From IMG/VR virus record IMGVR_UViG_2671180724_000008: a stretch of 64,000 bases of DNA, one strand, 5' to 3'. Source of the stretch: a virus. Lineage: Duplodnaviria; Heunggongvirae; Uroviricota; Caudoviricetes. How positions within the stretch are numbered: the first letter of the stretch is position 1; each line of letters opens with the position of its first letter. Positions 9,199 to 15,129 of the stretch are shown piece after piece. The notes beneath the pieces were generated by a model, which saw only the letters and a list, made by a program, of their open reading frames with translations, was not told the origin of the DNA and did not search any database. The position numbers were made by a program, and so were the translations under genes.

Positions 9199-9485
9199 GC
9201 AATTTAACTTCTTGGGAATGGTGGTTGGCCACCTATTTCTTAGCGGCCGGAGTCGCATTCGCCTTTTACGTAGGTCAGTTAGTCGTAAAACTGTTGCTGA
9301 TTAAATTTGCTAGTCATAAACGTATCGATGATGGTCTGTGGCGTCTTGGCACCCTGGTGGAAACTCGCTACGGGCAACTTAAGGAGAACGAAACCATTAC
9401 TATCCAAGCGAAACGATTCACTGCCACCATCACAAGAACACCTAGTCGTAGAGTGGCATTGATCAAAAAAGTCACAACCGAATAA
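9195..9485 (+). CDS. Small membrane protein
   Basis: N-terminal TM helix WWLATYFLAAGVAFAFYVGQLVV. Confidence 0.45.
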   Translation: MSNLTSWEWWLATYFLAAGVAFAFYVGQLVVKLLLIKFASHKRIDDGLWRLGTLVETRYGQLKENETITIQAKRFTATITRTPSRRVALIKKVTTE

Positions 9486-9494
9486 AAACATATT

Positions 9495-9516
9495 GATAAG
9501 TATTTACTTACTTATC
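9495..9516. promoter_or_regulatory. Copy of palindrome family GATAAGTAtttacttaCTTATC followed by TTTT
   Basis: Perfect 8-bp AT-rich arms. Confidence 0.4.
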
Positions 9517-9875
9517 TTTTGTGTATAAGATGACTTTGTTTTCGTTGAGACGCGACTGTTTGAACTTAAATACAAGTGCAAACGAAGAAGTCTATCTGGC
9601 AGTAGCCTAATAAGCCAAACACCAGCGAGGTCAGTTTCCAGCCTCGTTACCGAAATGGGACACACTGAGCGAGTGTGATTGCAGAACGCAGGAGGGAACA
9701 TTCATGTTCCCTCCGATGAAGTAACAGAATGGGCGGTTGGTATATTTTCAACTCCATATGACTCCCGGATTCTTAGCCACTGACCGCCCATCCTGTTACG
9801 TCATTTTGTTCAATTATGTCGTTTATACTGGGTTAAAAAGCGGCGACGTAGCCCGGCTGGTATGGTTAGCCAGCA

Positions 9876-9997
9876 CACAACGTTGAGGCCATTACATTTT
9901 TATCAATTCTAAGGTTCTATTCACAGAGATACCGGCGAGCGTTGATATGTAACATGTTGGGCAAACATTCAATCGGAGTAGTGGCCTCAACGTTGTG
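9876..9997. repeat. Stem-enclosed element: 16-bp inverted repeat CACAACGTTGAGGCCA / TGGCCTCAACGTTGTG around about 90 nt
   Basis: Perfect long-range inverted repeat; stem related to elements at 10519 and 11268. Confidence 0.55.
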
Positions 9998-10263
9998 AAG
10001 ACGGGATTGTTGTGTAGGTTTAACCACTGTTGCCATTGGTGCCTGTTTTCACAACAAATGATTCCATACATCACATTGTATAAATTACAAAGTAGGTGCT
10101 GTCCTCAGAAACATCATCTACTTAAAGATTTTGCCTTCTACTATTGAGCGAAGTCGAAAGCGTCTGGCACTAACGAAAAGTGCAAGTAGCGGTGCGTTTC
10201 CTGGCAGAAACTAAACCGTCGCGATTGGCACTGTTGAGTAATAAATACTGGCAGTGCTGAATT

Positions 10264-10339
10264 GATGGTGTAGCTCAGCGGTAGAGCAGTTGGCTGTTAA
10301 CCAACTGGTCGGTGGTTCGAATCCACCCACCATCGCCAA
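10264..10339 (+). tRNA. tRNA-Asn (anticodon GUU)
   Basis: Cloverleaf by hand: acceptor GATGGTG/CACCATC, anticodon stem GTTGG/CCAAC with loop CTGTTAA, T-arm GGTGG-TTCGAAT-CCACC, 3' CCA. Confidence 0.8.
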
Positions 10340-10343
10340 TTTA

Positions 10344-10430
10344 GGGGAGTTAGTCCGTAGAGGTAGCGGTGTAGACTGTAAATCTACTGTCATTGCGACT
10401 CGGGTGGTTCGACTCCATCACTCCCCACCA
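10344..10430 (+). tRNA. tRNA-Tyr (anticodon GUA), long variable arm
   Basis: Acceptor GGGGAGT/ACTCCCC, anticodon stem GTAGA/TCTAC with loop CTGTAAA, T-loop TTCGACT, 3' CCA. Confidence 0.7.
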
Positions 10431-10434
10431 AATT

Positions 10435-10510
10435 GCCGGTTTAGCTCAGTTGGTAGAGCGCCTGCCTTGTAAGCAGGATGTCAGCGGTTCGTGTCCGTTA
10501 ACCGGCACCA
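10435..10510 (+). tRNA. tRNA-Thr (anticodon UGU)
   Basis: Acceptor GCCGGTT/AACCGGC, D-arm GCTC-AGTTGGTA-GAGC, anticodon loop CTTGTAA, T-arm AGCGG-TTCGTGT-CCGTT, 3' CCA. Confidence 0.8.
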
Positions 10511-10518
10511 ACATAATA

Positions 10519-10598
10519 TTGAGAACATTGGCGTAACGGGGTCATATCCCAATCTATGAATAAATGTTACGTTGCCGCGTGACAACCAGTGTTCTCAA
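10519..10598. repeat. Stem-enclosed element (TTGAGAACATTGG / CCAGTGTTCTCAA) with nested CGTAAC/GTTACG stem
   Basis: 13-bp inverted repeat; same CACAnnGTTGAG stem family in inverted orientation. Confidence 0.5.
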
Positions 10599-11178
10599 CA
10601 TTGTGGTGAATGCACAGGCTGATGTGCCGCAACTACAGTAGTGCGCGCTTTGCGGGGCTTGCTACAACCCTGTGTCGGAGATCAGCGCCGACCATCACAA
10701 TTTGGCTCTCTTGCAACAGCATAACGCTGAAATATGTCCAACCTGGTGCGGCCTGTTCACCCGCCGTTAGCTCCACGAAACGGAGCGCACAACAGATAAG
10801 AGAACTTCCCATATGGGGCTTGGCTTAAATGCATCGAGTTCTCTTATCGCTGTGTCACAGACAAATTTCCGACAGCCCTGTTTATCATCGGACGCAACCT
10901 AAAAGGTCGAGGCAAAGCCAGGTAATAGCGGAGGGAGTGACACAGCACACAACAGGTAAGAGCATTTGTAGAGTTCGACTCTCTACCGTGGGCTTTTTCC
11001 CGCGATGCGAGCCATAAATGCTCTTTCCGTTGTGGTGGATTCGCAGACTGATGCGATAGCTTTCTTGGATGTTAGGGAAATGCGGCCGCAAATCTTCCCT
11101 TTCGCGAGCGGTGATCGTCCGTAGTCCTAATTGGCTGCACCGTATGCCGGAGATTCAGTACCGGCCACCACAACGGCC

Positions 11179-11265
11179 GGAGAGTAGGGAGCATGGTGCT
11201 CAAGCGGTCTTGAAAACCGTCCCATTGTGCAAACGATGATGGTTCGATTCCATTACTCTCCGCCA
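11179..11265 (+). tRNA. tRNA-Ser (anticodon UGA), long variable arm
   Basis: Acceptor GGAGAGT/ACTCTCC, anticodon stem-loop GGTCTTGAAAACC as in enterobacterial tRNA-Ser(UGA), T-loop TTCGATT, 3' GCCA; D-arm atypical. Confidence 0.65.
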
Positions 11266-11267
11266 GA

Positions 11268-11345
11268 CACAGCGTTGAGCGGTTTGGCCTTTTAATCAAC
11301 TCGATTAAGACTCCGCTAACATAAACCAGACCGCTCAACGCTGTG
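11268..11345. repeat. Stem-enclosed element directly 3' of tRNA-Ser (CACAGCGTTGAGCGGT / ACCGCTCAACGCTGTG)
   Basis: 16-bp perfect inverted repeat around about 45 nt. Confidence 0.55.
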
Positions 11346-11420
11346 ATAGACAATTACGGCAGACGTTCTTAACCATAGCTTGCTAACATCCTAGCAACAC
11401 TTTTTTTCAGCGCAAAATTC

Positions 11421-11443
11421 AAAGGGGCTTCGGCCCCTTTTTT
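11421..11443. terminator. Bidirectional rho-independent terminator (GGGGC-TTCG-GCCCC flanked by A-run and T-run)
   Basis: GC stem with tetraloop; T-run on both strands; just past the stop of the minus-strand gene 11461-12795. Confidence 0.8.
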
Positions 11444-11460
11444 GAAAGCAATGGGCAAGT

Positions 11461-12795
11461 TCATGCCAAATTATCCAGATTTCTTTTCTTTTTTTCAATT
11501 ATATTTCTCGCGCCAGAAAAAATTTTACTCAAAATAATTGATTTGCTTGCTCTATTATTAAGATGTAACAACGCGCTATAAAATACATAGTTATCTATTT
11601 TACTATTTAAAGTATTCCCAAGCTTCCCGTTATATGTGCTATTAATAGTATTAAAATATACATGTTCAGGACCTATATTACAAATACCCCTATCAACTCG
11701 CTTTAAATAATGTTTAACTAAAGAAATAGCATCTTCCTTATCATTAATAACATAAAGTCCTGAGCGTTTACCTAGCTTGCTGTCCGAGAATAATTTATAA
11801 CCAACAAGTTCATTTAACGTATTATCCACTTTTGTCAACTCTTTGTTGGCAATCTCCAAATAATACTCAATCTCTTTCTCCATATTACTTATTAAAGAGT
11901 TAAATTCTGCTCGTAACAAATCACCACCAGGTGATTTATAACTCCATAAAATTGAATTGGTAATACGTACTACGTCAGATACTTCTGGTTTCTCTGAATA
12001 GTTTTTGTATCTAGTGCAAATAATGCTGTGCTTTATATATTCTCTAACTAATGATCGATAATCCCTTTCGAAAAGGTTTTTGACATCTAGTCTTCCATTG
12101 CTTGTTGTTATTAAGGTGGTGTTTAAAACTGGGTCGCCTTCAAAAAAATTATATTTATTTAGTAATCGTTTTAGCTTGTGTGAATTATGTGATGTTTCGC
12201 CATAATAATTTATCCCAAAAATAGCAATTATTAGCATAACATCAGGAGTGATGAAATGTCGTAATTGCTCGGCATAAACTTTTTTATCTTCGATTTTCGA
12301 AGATGGAGAGTAAAAACCTTTGTCTATATATTCTAATATTGAAACAATATTACTAACATAACGTATAAAAACTTGATTCATTACAACGGAATCATAAACC
12401 TGATGCAAATAATCTACTCTCAAGTTGTTTTTTATTTTTTCCCCTGTACTAGATGATAACTCTTCTTTTACCTGCCCAAGTAGCTTTTCGTGGTGCTCCA
12501 GCAATGTTTTAAACCATTGTTCAAATGATGATTTTCTTGCCTCAGTTAATGAATCTGATGTTATCTGGACAGCTTTCATAGCTGCTTTCGCACTTTTCTT
12601 TGCTTCATAAGCGTTCCATGCTGAAGCACAAAAAGCTGCCGCCGTGATGCAACTGGTAAAAATAGAAATCCTATCTGCAACATTCAAGCTCCAGAACCAA
12701 TCAGACGATGAAATCAAAACCACAGATATTACGGGAACAATGAAAATCAAAACAGGCATGTATGTACTCGCTCTAATAGTTATTAGTCGAGGCAA
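11461..12795 (-). CDS. AT-rich membrane-anchored protein of unknown function; candidate superinfection-exclusion, abortive-infection or defence gene
   Basis: Gene visibly much more AT-rich than neighbours; two N-terminal TM helices then about 380-aa soluble region; own AT-rich promoter region and terminator; opposite strand. Confidence 0.6.
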   Translation of the reverse strand: MPRLITIRASTYMPVLIFIVPVISVVLISSSDWFWSLNVADRISIFTSCITAAAFCASAWNAYEAKKSAKAAMKAVQITSDSLTEARKSSFEQWFKTLLEHHEKLLGQVKEELSSSTGEKIKNNLRVDYLHQVYDSVVMNQVFIRYVSNIVSILEYIDKGFYSPSSKIEDKKVYAEQLRHFITPDVMLIIAIFGINYYGETSHNSHKLKRLLNKYNFFEGDPVLNTTLITTSNGRLDVKNLFERDYRSLVREYIKHSIICTRYKNYSEKPEVSDVVRITNSILWSYKSPGGDLLRAEFNSLISNMEKEIEYYLEIANKELTKVDNTLNELVGYKLFSDSKLGKRSGLYVINDKEDAISLVKHYLKRVDRGICNIGPEHVYFNTINSTYNGKLGNTLNSKIDNYVFYSALLHLNNRASKSIILSKIFSGARNIIEKKKRNLDNLA

Positions 12796-12854
12796 ATATT
12801 ATATAAATCTCGTTATGATTTACAGACATGTATACGTATTGCTAATTATCACCA

Positions 12855-12888
12855 ACAAATGATAGGTGTGTACATATCTATCATTTGT
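12855..12888. promoter_or_regulatory. Palindrome ACAAATGATAG-N12-CTATCATTTGT in promoter region of the minus-strand gene
   Basis: Perfect 11-bp inverted repeat; half-site related to the GATAAGTA family. Confidence 0.45.
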
Positions 12889-12937
12889 TGTAAAATTAAT
12901 GTATACGCTATGAATACACTAATAATATGAGGTAATC

Positions 12938-13183
12938 ATGACTATCGTTATCTACGGACGAGATAACTGTTCATACTGCAAACGTGCGGTCGAGCTGGCG
13001 AAGCAACTAAAGGGACATGGCTACGGTGATTATGAGTACATCGACATCACTACTACCGGTATCGATAAGGAAAAACTTAGCGAAATTGTTGGTAAACCGG
13101 TAGAGACTATACCCCAGGTACTGATCGATGGCCAGCCGATTGGCGGATACACAGAACTGGCTGCATACGTCAGCACCCTCTGA
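12938..13183 (+). CDS. Glutaredoxin (NrdH/Grx-like redoxin)
   Basis: CSYC active-site motif near N-terminus, 81 aa. Confidence 0.75.
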   Translation: MTIVIYGRDNCSYCKRAVELAKQLKGHGYGDYEYIDITTTGIDKEKLSEIVGKPVETIPQVLIDGQPIGGYTELAAYVSTL

Positions 13184-13187
13184 TTTT

Positions 13188-13211
13188 AACGGCTCACAGG
13201 AGCCGTTTTTA
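13188..13211 (+). terminator. Rho-independent terminator (CGGCTC-acag-GAGCCG then TTTTT)
   Basis: Hairpin plus T-run after glutaredoxin stop. Confidence 0.7.
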
Positions 13212-13349
13212 TTCCCACCAAACTCACTCCCGTTTCCCTTAAAATTCAAAAAACAACGTCAAAATGATTCCATACCTACTATGTATGGAATCATTCGTGA
13301 AAATGAGTTACTTTTACTCTTGATCCTATAAGAATCTATGCCTAATATA

Positions 13350-13365
13350 CTGTTTACTTATACAG
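13350..13365. promoter_or_regulatory. LexA (SOS) box CTGTTTACTTATACAG, about 29 bp upstream of the recombinase start
   Basis: Matches CTGT-N8-ACAG with AT-rich spacer. Confidence 0.6.
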
Positions 13366-13393
13366 TGAATCGGCGTAACTCGGTGATTGTCAT

Positions 13394-14497
13394 ATGAAAA
13401 ATAGCTTTGACAGAGCACGCGCTGCGGAGAACACCTCAAAAGAGGCGATTGAGTATCTCGAAAGAGCATCTCAAATGCAGGCCGTTATGATCTCGCAGGT
13501 TAGCAATGACATGAGATTCTCGGACGCATTCATGTTATTCACTCGCTTATCTCTGCTTATAACCAGACGTCGGCCAGAGATCGCTGTTCATTGTATTTTG
13601 ATACATGTTTTGCCGCACATTGCTGATGTAAAAGTAAGTGACATTAATAGGTTCATGGTGAACCAACTGGTAAACCCACTAATACTGGATGGCAAAATTG
13701 TTATGGGCCGCCGCGTTTTCTCTCTGATGAAGCAGTTCCTTAGCTGGTGCGCCTTCCAGGGGATGATAGACGTGTCACCGTTAAACGATATGTCACTAAA
13801 CAAAGTTGCCGGTGGCGCAAAGCCCACACCTCGCGAGCGGAAGCTGACCGACGCAGAGGTATGGGTGTTCTGGAATATATGGGACTACTTCAATGTGTGC
13901 GCTGGTACAAAATGGGCGGCCAGGCTGTGTCTTGTATCAGCAAGACGACCTGACGAAGTACTGCGGGCTAAAAAAAGTGAGTTCAATCTTAAGCGTGGGG
14001 TTTGGAATCAAGGCAAGAGAAACAAGTCAGCACGTGAGCATTCGCTGCCTTTAAGCACATTAATGCGCACATGCATTGAAGAGTTGTTCGAATACGGTAA
14101 AGACAGCCAGTGGCTCGTGCCTTCGAATAAAAAAATCGGGAAAGACCTTCCTATGTCTAAAGTGGCAATAGCCCAGGCATTACGTCGTATTCTGGAACGA
14201 CCAGAACTGATGGAGCTTGAGCCATTTACACCCCGAGATTTGCGCCGTACTGCGCGTAGTTACTTCCCAGCATTAGGCATAAGCCAGGAGGTATCACGCA
14301 AAATCATGAACCACAGTCTTGAGGGGATAGATCGGGTCTACGACCGGCACGATTATATGGACGAGATGCGAGACGCCTTAGAAAGTTTCTCGACGTACAT
14401 CGCATCAATCGTAGAGCAACCGGATTTAGACGAAATTGACCACAAATTCAAGGGAGATCGTCTATCAACAGAGCTTATTCGTGTAAATTTTTCATAG
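13394..14497 (+). CDS. Tyrosine recombinase (phage integrase family); integration versus dimer-resolution role unresolved
   Basis: C-terminal motifs RDLRRTARSY and HSLEG...RVYDRHDY resembling P4-type integrase R/H-x-x-R/Y signature, recalled from memory; no obvious N-terminal arm-binding domain. Confidence 0.65.
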   Translation: MKNSFDRARAAENTSKEAIEYLERASQMQAVMISQVSNDMRFSDAFMLFTRLSLLITRRRPEIAVHCILIHVLPHIADVKVSDINRFMVNQLVNPLILDGKIVMGRRVFSLMKQFLSWCAFQGMIDVSPLNDMSLNKVAGGAKPTPRERKLTDAEVWVFWNIWDYFNVCAGTKWAARLCLVSARRPDEVLRAKKSEFNLKRGVWNQGKRNKSAREHSLPLSTLMRTCIEELFEYGKDSQWLVPSNKKIGKDLPMSKVAIAQALRRILERPELMELEPFTPRDLRRTARSYFPALGISQEVSRKIMNHSLEGIDRVYDRHDYMDEMRDALESFSTYIASIVEQPDLDEIDHKFKGDRLSTELIRVNFS

Positions 14498-14878
14498 AGA
14501 CTTTATGGCCTCAACAACCTTTTGTGATGCGCCTTTCTCTTTACCGAATCGCTCGTTATATGCAGCAAGAACCTGTTTTTCGTCCTCGTTAAGAGGAGCG
14601 GTGCCTTCTTTGTATAAAAATGCTGCGAGTTCAGGTTGGCGTTCTTCCAGCACCATCATCATAAGACGACTTGGCTCAATACCCAGCGCCAGCGCCAGCG
14701 GACGAACCTTATCGATAGGCAAAGGAATTTTGCCACTTTTAATTAAAGAAAGGTTGTTGGCATTTTTATAACCAATAAGTCTGGCTATTTGGGCCTGACT
14801 CATAGGTGAGGATTCAATCAGCCCTGCGATAAAAGCAGCATAGCGACTTTCTATAAATTCAATCTTGTTGTCAGACAT
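14492..14878 (-). CDS. XRE-family helix-turn-helix transcriptional regulator
   Basis: HTH region SQAQIARLIGYKNANNLSLIKSG; divergent from downstream plus-strand genes. Confidence 0.7.
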   Translation of the reverse strand: MSDNKIEFIESRYAAFIAGLIESSPMSQAQIARLIGYKNANNLSLIKSGKIPLPIDKVRPLALALGIEPSRLMMMVLEERQPELAAFLYKEGTAPLNEDEKQVLAAYNERFGKEKGASQKVVEAIKSL

Positions 14879-15129
14879 TGTTACAACCTTTGCGCGTTTA
14901 ATTCTCTCTGGTAAGTGCTTACCGATATTACATCAAAGGTTAGGGTTGTAAAGCTATTATCATTTTTTTCGGCAGGCACTTGTAAGACCGAGCAAAGGTC
15001 CATGCATGGAGAAAAACTAGCCCAAAATAGGTAAGAAAATTAACTTGCATCTGATATAGATGTATTCAGTATTGATACAAATTTTAGTAGTATTCCTTAC
15101 CATAGTATAAGTTAGAATGGATTGATTGA

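Follow-up and report, generated by a model that had tools for sequence, protein, structure and literature searches.

We analysed a 64,000-nucleotide stretch of DNA from a virus of the Caudoviricetes (IMG/VR record IMGVR_UViG_2671180724_000008), hereafter the window, and focus on one of its genes, a minus-strand coding sequence at 11461-12759 which lies between a cluster of transfer RNA (tRNA) genes and the glutaredoxin gene grxA. Its most likely product is an abortive-infection protein of the AbiC/AbiP group that is anchored in the membrane and works as a single-gene system; the gene is cargo of a phage-plasmid and occupies a polymorphic slot between tRNA-Ser and grxA. A preliminary description of the same DNA had proposed an abortive-infection or other anti-phage effector here; an anti-phage role is still the best reading, because the predicted protein is homologous to the AbiC/AbiP (putAbiC) group, and an AbiGi/AbiGii pair is found in the same slot in sister plasmids.

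Relationship to the putAbiC family

The protein matches the Pfam family putAbiC (PF16872) at 21.7-21.8 bits (E = 2.7e-4 to 2.9e-4), against a gathering threshold of 22 bits, over residues 144-219 of the 444-residue open reading frame (ORF). PF16872 is also matched by five of the eight members of its close family and, at E <= 0.01, by 16 of the 34 members of a wider family (best E = 3.3e-10). A word-indexed search recovered a small family of 9 and then 40 proteins, all of 400-445 amino acids (aa) and all from Enterobacterales; PF16872 is present in some of these, and the annotation of one reads 'putative phage abortive infection protein'. An exhaustive HMMER profile search of 1.84 billion representatives yielded only 153 clusters. 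Ten distant, shorter matches from this search were scanned, and all ten pass the PF16872 threshold, at 27-61 bits. Seven of these ten bridging putAbiC proteins match the PADLOC models for AbiP and/or AbiC (E = 2.5e-7 to 1e-3); the AbiP model is matched by seven of the ten, and the AbiC model by four of the ten and by one of the 34 family members (E = 1.4e-4). When the family profile was aligned by hhalign with the threshold-passing bridging proteins, a set recruited with the family's own profile, the two were related with 99.4% probability (E = 3.1e-21) over 181 columns, corresponding to residues ~31-216. What the protein shares with genuine putAbiC proteins is a core of ~150 residues.

On the basis of these comparisons we place the protein in the putAbiC (AbiC/AbiP) superfamily as a divergent member, belonging to a ~430-aa enterobacterial branch with an extra, variable C-terminal half. 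NCBI annotates relatives that share this ~430-aa architecture as 'putative phage abortive infection protein'. The preliminary description, which could not match the protein to any family and put it forward as a candidate undescribed system, is thus superseded on both counts: there is a borderline match to putAbiC and a 99.4% hhalign link to putAbiC proteins, PF16872 is already in Pfam, and relatives are already annotated as abortive-infection proteins. The gene adds a new member, scoring at the threshold, to a known family, and its setting, a defence hotspot in a temperate element, is also of a known kind.

NCBIfam returned only noise for the protein, while PHROGs returned families of unknown function (phrog_18168, E = 1.8e-177) and matched no family annotated for exclusion. 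Weak Pfam matches to FHIPEP, MxiM, SLATT_1 and DUF6524 were rejected as noise. A two-transmembrane effector of the SLATT type was considered and likewise rejected, the only sign of it being SLATT_1 at E = 0.23 in one of eight members, with none of 34 members matching at E <= 0.01. Among the matches listed in a search of PLSDB with a strong putAbiC protein were 'putative phage abortive infection protein' genes of Vibrio, Bacillus, Pseudomonas and Pantoea, and none from Lactococcus.

An exchangeable cassette in SSU5-like phage-plasmids

The region was matched at 213 places in complete E. coli genomes, all of them on plasmids of ~105-115 kb and none chromosomal. Over the adjoining 20 kb, identity is 96-97% with Escherichia phages CMS-2020a, PhiR41_1 and Cyrano, and ~80% with Salmonella phage SSU5. 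Judged from these matches, the window comes from an SSU5-like E. coli phage-plasmid and not from an integrated prophage; the preliminary description had likened the gene to prophage cargo.

Within this backbone, similarity to sister plasmids stops at 11441-11447, directly after a hairpin at 11421-11443, and this left junction holds even for relatives from Enterobacter, Klebsiella and Salmonella. Similarity restarts at 12938, the ATG of grxA, or at 12843 in comparison with a plasmid carrying a 30%-identical allele. The gene and its surroundings therefore form an exchangeable cassette. From blastn junctions against six plasmids (L002, L003, L012, L014, L015 and L016), the variable cassette proper extends over 11448-12842 and comprises the gene and its proximal promoter; against some relatives the replacement reaches 12937.

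The slot is occupied differently in different sister plasmids. Some carry an AbiGi/AbiGii-type pair in the same orientation; in L002 (6177-8236) and L012 (5176-7235) the slot is filled by an AbiGi gene (Pfam, E = 4.5e-25) and a gene for a 403-aa partner. Others carry only a gp49-family gene that is co-directional with grxA (L003 and L014, and also phage Cyrano), and others again carry alleles of the gene with 50%, 33% or 30% protein identity. We took a census of the slot in 5,426 complete E. coli genomes, in which 212 plasmids share the left flank and part of these could be assigned to particular contents. The gp49 sequence of the gp49-only arrangement was matched in 77 plasmids (by sequence match alone), the 30%-identical allele was found in 39-40, the AbiG pair in 19-35, the 33%-identical allele in eight and the allele of the window in six. 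At this hotspot the AbiG pair is a functional alternative to the AbiC-like gene.

In complete E. coli genomes the gene is found on mobile elements only, and never on a chromosome. More broadly, 135 plasmids in PLSDB (from Escherichia, Klebsiella, Enterobacter, Salmonella, Pantoea and Citrobacter) encode a relative, which lies at the same place in the Escherichia, Klebsiella, Enterobacter and Salmonella examples that we inspected. The gene stands alone among unrelated neighbours in phage-plasmids, in an integrative conjugative element (ICE) and in a chromosome (Pectobacterium), and no partner gene is conserved across the phage-plasmid, ICE and chromosomal contexts inspected. The first proposal, that the gene is single-gene cargo, is supported: it is a lone unit in a polymorphic slot that is a mobile-element hotspot. 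In the ICE, on an Enterobacter cloacae complex chromosome (L007, 8001-9287), the relative P0040 is lone cargo between TraG-D/DtrJ-like genes and an FRG-domain gene, with a G+C content (GC) of 32.5% in surroundings of 55.8%.

Coding sequence, composition and selection

The minus-strand ORF at 11461-12795 is real, and is open up to a TTG at 12795, from which a 444-aa product had been predicted. The start used in RefSeq and in all homologues is the ATG at 12759, which gives a 432-aa product with the N-terminus MP(V/I)L. We rejected the TTG start as an over-extension; in addition to the evidence from RefSeq and the homologues, the TTG lies only 3 nt downstream of a conserved -10 hexamer, TATAAT, and 432 aa is therefore used throughout.

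Calculation confirmed the impression that the gene is much more AT-rich than the genes around it. Its GC is 32.4%, compared with 45.7% for the window, and is the minimum among all 1335-bp windows (z = -4.7); its GC at third codon positions (26.8%) is the lowest among 55 ORFs of at least 150 aa (mean 46.6%, standard deviation 6.4). Low GC is common to every allele in all host contexts (31-38%, versus 44-56%), and the AbiG cassette that replaces the gene elsewhere is likewise low in GC (33-34%). These values support the gene being compositionally foreign. It is also transcribed against the phage operons.

Between the gene and a 97.7%-identical allele, the ratio of non-synonymous to synonymous substitution rates (dN/dS) is 0.29, at a dS of 0.07; the corresponding dN/dS for grxA is 0.05. 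By this measure the gene is shown to be under purifying selection. Reading frames are intact in all full-length alleles examined, which come from several genera.

Predicted architecture of the protein

Two transmembrane (TM) helices at the N-terminus, already recognized in the preliminary description, were confirmed, TM1 by hydropathy and TM2 by conservation together with an AlphaFold2 helix. TM1 (residues 1-19; 12703-12759, minus strand) reaches a Kyte-Doolittle mean of 2.36 over 19 residues and is modelled as a helix at residues 2-18. TM2 (residues ~31-50; 12610-12669, minus strand) is moderately hydrophobic (Kyte-Doolittle ~1.3, counted by hand from the translation) and is the most conserved segment of the protein, at 3.35 bits per column, with T39 and W48 invariant; E73, K76 and D146, farther along the chain, are likewise invariant. 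In the AlphaFold2 model (predicted local distance difference test 80, predicted template modelling score 0.69), TM2 runs into a long helix spanning residues 30-102. The part of this helix next to the membrane on the cytoplasmic side (residues 51-100; 12460-12609, minus strand) is nearly invariant and carries Ala or Ser at every third to fourth residue, and we infer that it may form a surface for helix packing or oligomerisation. The strong conservation of TM2 and of the Ala/Ser-rich helix suggests that the membrane part may be more than an anchor.

Across 34 members of the family the loop between the two helices has on average 0.4 Lys+Arg and 1.6 Asp+Glu, and the 20 residues after TM2 have 3.5 Lys+Arg; from this positive-inside pattern the large domain is predicted to be cytoplasmic. 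The predicted topology places ~380 of the 432 residues in the cytoplasm and ~12 in the periplasm, and the cytoplasmic part is basic, with an isoelectric point (pI) of 9.2. It includes the region matching putAbiC (residues 132-207; 12139-12366, minus strand), which lies within the wider homologous core at residues ~31-216; conservation over residues 131-210 is moderate. The C-terminal half (residues 217-432; 11464-12111, minus strand) is found only in the ~430-aa enterobacterial subfamily, is poorly conserved, at 1.4-1.9 bits, diverges fast and is basic (pI 9.4). A hypervariable patch of 28 residues within it (residues 299-326; 11782-11865, minus strand), situated at the end of a long helix (277-318) and in the first strand, accounts for 12 of the 19 differences from the 97.7%-identical allele of pAMPD01; this patch may reflect either a recombination tract or diversifying selection at the site. 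Fold comparison of the protein gave no match suggesting an activity.

Comparison with known abortive-infection systems

AbiC was cloned in 1992, and the lactococcal protein (Prf; plasmid pTN20 of Lactococcus lactis, PADLOC PDLC02343) is, like the protein described here, encoded by a single gene on a mobile element. Both have two N-terminal TM helices followed by an all-helical extra-membrane domain, share the putAbiC core, and lack a fold match that would suggest an activity. They differ in that our protein has 432 aa, compared with the 306 positions of the PADLOC AbiC model, carries the extra variable C-terminal half of ~215 residues, is found in Enterobacterales on a phage-plasmid, and has a Pfam score just under threshold with no direct PADLOC match. 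AbiC has been described as having two TM helices and an extra-membrane domain, and as lowering production of the major capsid protein (PMC13064643).

AbiP (Lactococcus lactis, PADLOC PDLC02351) resembles the protein in its membrane anchor and common core, but it has one TM helix and is much shorter (223 model positions). AbiP binds nucleic acid, blocks DNA replication and the switch from early to late transcription, and is triggered by a major tail protein (PMC13064643). The basic cytoplasmic part of our protein would be compatible with the nucleic-acid binding reported for AbiP (PMC13064643); however, both that binding and the tail-protein trigger are results for AbiP alone.

A further comparison is with enterobacterial relatives annotated as 'putative phage abortive infection protein', for example P0040 of the Enterobacter cloacae complex ICE and WP_161569778.1 of Pantoea agglomerans (406 aa, in the cluster of the 431-aa P0048). 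These share the architecture of ~400-430 aa, align over most of their length (P0040, E = 2.6e-37 against the family profile), and are low-GC lone cargo; they have 26-30% identity to the protein, pass the Pfam threshold, unlike the allele of the window, and are carried by other mobile elements. AbiGi/AbiGii shares with the gene the exact slot, the orientation and the low GC in sister phage-plasmids, but consists of two genes for unrelated proteins without a TM anchor. Indirect support for an anti-phage role exists at the level of the whole element: an SSU5-like plasmid of Klebsiella lowers the plating efficiency of three lytic phages 10-100-fold, although the gene responsible is unmapped (PMC8969562).

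Proposed role and alternative explanations

If the protein acts by abortive infection, the gene would be expressed in the plasmid-prophage state and its product would shield the host, and hence the phage-plasmid, from other phages. Something made by the infecting phage would be recognised by the cytoplasmic domain, the specificity being determined by the variable C-terminal half; once activated, the membrane-anchored protein would halt phage development at a stage after entry, and the infected cell would pay a cost. Exchange of alleles between phage-plasmids would proceed by homologous recombination within the conserved flanking sequences, provided by the terminator on the left and the operator/promoter on the right. 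A tentative elaboration, which we regard as unlikely, is that the ~430-aa branch would be a distinct single-protein sensor-effector, in which TM2 and the Ala/Ser-rich helix form an oligomerising effector and the C-terminal half, with its patch at residues 299-326, serves as an exchangeable phage-recognition module. Were this so, allele swapping would maintain a cassette-style, population-level repertoire of specificities against phages or rival plasmids, a mechanism and an evolutionary logic not described for AbiC or AbiP.

Several points weigh against the abortive-infection assignment. An anti-phage role for the ~430-aa subfamily is a prediction. The protein itself falls 0.2-0.3 bits below the PF16872 gathering score, and a search of defence-system profiles, as the preliminary description had suggested, was run with PADLOC and gave no model match for the protein itself, although seven of the ten bridging relatives match the AbiP and/or AbiC models. 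The link to lactococcal AbiC and AbiP is, as traced here, transitive, passing through models and through bridging proteins found with the family's own profile. A tblastn search of 50,697 deposited phage genomes, SSU5-like phages included, found no relatives. To our knowledge the mechanism of AbiC and AbiP is unsolved, so that to say the protein works like AbiC predicts little. Finally, H-NS may silence a gene of such AT content in E. coli, so that expression in the lysogen is only a prediction.

Superinfection exclusion, or competition between elements more generally, would call for a block of DNA entry or establishment at the envelope, directed at SSU5-like phage-plasmids or other phages and without cell killing; the divergent alleles would then reflect an arms race between competing phage-plasmids. 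Membrane anchoring would suit such a function, as would restriction to mobile elements (never chromosomal in E. coli), extreme allele diversity in near-identical backbones, the hypervariable patch, and the status of the gene as temperate-element cargo with its own promoter, opposed to the phage operons. Known exclusion proteins are much smaller, however, and a protein with ~380 of 432 residues in the cytoplasm and ~12 in the periplasm fits intracellular sensing better than a block of injection. Homology is also to abortive-infection proteins that act after DNA entry (PMC13064643), and we consider exclusion an unlikely account. It is more doubtful again that the gene serves the element's own biology, whether in maintenance of the plasmid-prophage through host killing or addiction, in the timing of lysis, or in tethering replication to the membrane. 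Homologues at the same slot and in the same orientation in SSU5-like plasmids of Escherichia, Klebsiella, Enterobacter and Salmonella (with a relative in 135 PLSDB plasmids) could mean an ancestral backbone function, and a backbone regulatory palindrome adjoins the gene; yet the gene is dispensable, since plasmids with gp49 only (L003 and L014; the gp49 sequence in 77 plasmids), AbiG plasmids and phage Cyrano do without it in the slot. The deposited phage genomes lack a relative, relatives do occur in unrelated elements (the ICE and the Pectobacterium chromosome), and low GC with allele replacement is typical of cargo rather than of core genes.

The least probable account is that the gene is a passenger, silent or in decay, that at present confers no phenotype. 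In its favour are the very high AT content and the presence in databases of a truncated, 306-aa form (P0003); however, a dN/dS of 0.29 at a dS of 0.07, intact frames in the full-length alleles of several genera, and conservation of the -10 element, the 5' untranslated region (UTR) and the N-terminus all argue against decay.

Regulatory signals at the borders of the cassette

The hairpin at 11421-11443 (AAAGGGGC-tetraloop-GCCCCTTT) has an 8-bp G+C-rich stem and a tetraloop, followed by U6 on the plus strand and by the weaker GAAUUUUG on the minus strand. It folds at -17 to -18 kcal/mol on both strands, and a consensus terminator scanner did not call it. By its predicted fold it is a strong intrinsic terminator for the plus-strand tRNA transcript and a weaker one for the minus-strand gene. 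It lies inside the backbone common to 212 E. coli plasmids regardless of cargo, and is therefore primarily the terminator of the tRNA cluster, into which the cassette gene merely reads. Of the bidirectional terminator initially assigned to the gene, the two-strand folding stands, while private ownership by the gene does not.

An 11-bp palindrome previously noted upstream of the gene is similarly real but proved to be larger, and is not the gene's own signal. It is part of a 38-bp palindrome at 12853-12890 (core 12863-12880), situated between the divergent gene and grxA, with arms of 19 nt that are complementary at 17 of 19 positions and include perfect 11-mers at 12855-12865 and 12878-12888. 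Relatives carrying different cargo have copies upstream of either grxA or phoH, and in an Enterobacter plasmid in which an insertion sequence (IS) element separates the palindrome from the AbiC-like gene, the palindrome still adjoins phoH. It is therefore taken as a backbone regulatory site, and a candidate operator, of the rightward grxA operon. Since both the terminator and the palindrome are present in plasmids with other cargo, we rejected them as cassette-private signals.

The palindrome belongs to a dispersed family. The motif TARGTAAGTNNTTACYTA has 22 strand matches in the window with at most two mismatches, versus 0.10 expected; the copy at 12863 exceeds this limit and was found with a looser pattern. 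The dispersed palindrome is ~30 bp long, with the symmetrised consensus aaatgATAaGTAAgTAcTTACtTATcattt. We mapped 13 sites, with 18-bp cores at 2541, 5975, 9497, 12863, 23151, 26665, 30706, 34213, 38897, 43609, 48448, 50661 and 54712, and all 13 fall between genes, mostly no more than ~40 bp (often 1-20 bp) past the stop of a plus-strand ORF and 5-180 bp before the next ORF. The motif is probably an operator or promoter element used throughout the phage-plasmid, and in its logic would resemble the C1 operators scattered over P1. In the collection of papers searched, no account of the dispersed palindrome was found. A core copy (GGTAAGTGCTTACC) also occurs at 14910-14925, 32 bp upstream of a minus-strand helix-turn-helix gene (14492-14878; 128 aa) annotated as 'putative repressor' in phage Cyrano, and there are half-sites near 15028 and at 15094-15118. 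This arrangement suggests the product of that gene as a candidate autoregulated repressor that would bind the dispersed sites.

The gene's own promoter is best sought closer to its start. In the proximal upstream region (12760-12842) a TATAAT hexamer, the 5' UTR and the start context are conserved among alleles with 30-50% protein identity, and the TATAAT at 12798-12803 (minus strand) is the best candidate for the -10 element. It was not called by a consensus promoter scan, having a poor -35; the scanner's choice was a weaker TGTACA-18-GATAAT overlapping the palindrome.

Neighbouring genes and other variable sites

The gene lies between tRNA-Ser and the glutaredoxin gene, as originally placed. 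On the left is tRNA-Ser(UGA) (11179-11265, plus strand), the last gene of the backbone tRNA cluster, identified by ARAGORN and in the RefSeq annotation of a 99.5%-identical plasmid; on the right is grxA (12938-13183, plus strand), which encodes a GrxA-family glutaredoxin and at which backbone similarity restarts. An Rfam scan of 9400-13300 found four tRNAs and no further family.

Variation among near-identical plasmids extends beyond the slot. The spacer between tRNA-Thr and tRNA-Ser (10511-11178) has 668 bp in the window, 493 bp in L001, 364 bp in L003 and 8 bp in L002, with no Rfam family found in it, and tRNA-Tyr is present in some of these plasmids and absent from others. A second variable slot lies between grxA and a tyrosine recombinase gene (13184-13393). 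It is empty in the window, holds a YafO-family toxin and a partner in L002, L004 and L005, and in Cyrano and L011 contains, on the opposite strand, a gene for a 184-aa protein. Here backbone similarity restarts at ~13245-13262, adjoining a 33-bp palindrome (13263-13295; AATGATTCCATACCTA-C-TATGTATGGAATCATT) with outer bases similar to the flanks of the dispersed backbone motif, and a terminator-like hairpin is found at 13188-13207. In L012 (pCUVET20-PYO4.2), an ISEcp1-blaCTX-M unit (1-2852) truncates the DNA ligase gene ~2.3 kb upstream of the first slot; the blaCTX-M gene is annotated as frameshifted.

Implications for phage-plasmid biology

Clinical E. coli, Klebsiella, Salmonella and Shigella commonly carry SSU5-like phage-plasmids, and what these elements provide to their hosts is poorly known. 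Here the contents of one fixed slot beside the tRNA cluster alternate: it carries one of at least three highly divergent AbiC/AbiP-like alleles, an AbiG pair, or neither. What this adds in practice is modest, since Pfam already contains the family and the proposed role is as expected. PADLOC misses the AbiC-like alleles, and if this is true of other tools, surveys that rely on them would undercount the defence genes of these elements. The dispersed palindrome is a separate lead on the regulation of phage-plasmids. For the AbiC/AbiP group itself, an E. coli homologue with many natural alleles would make the mechanism tractable in a genetically easy host.

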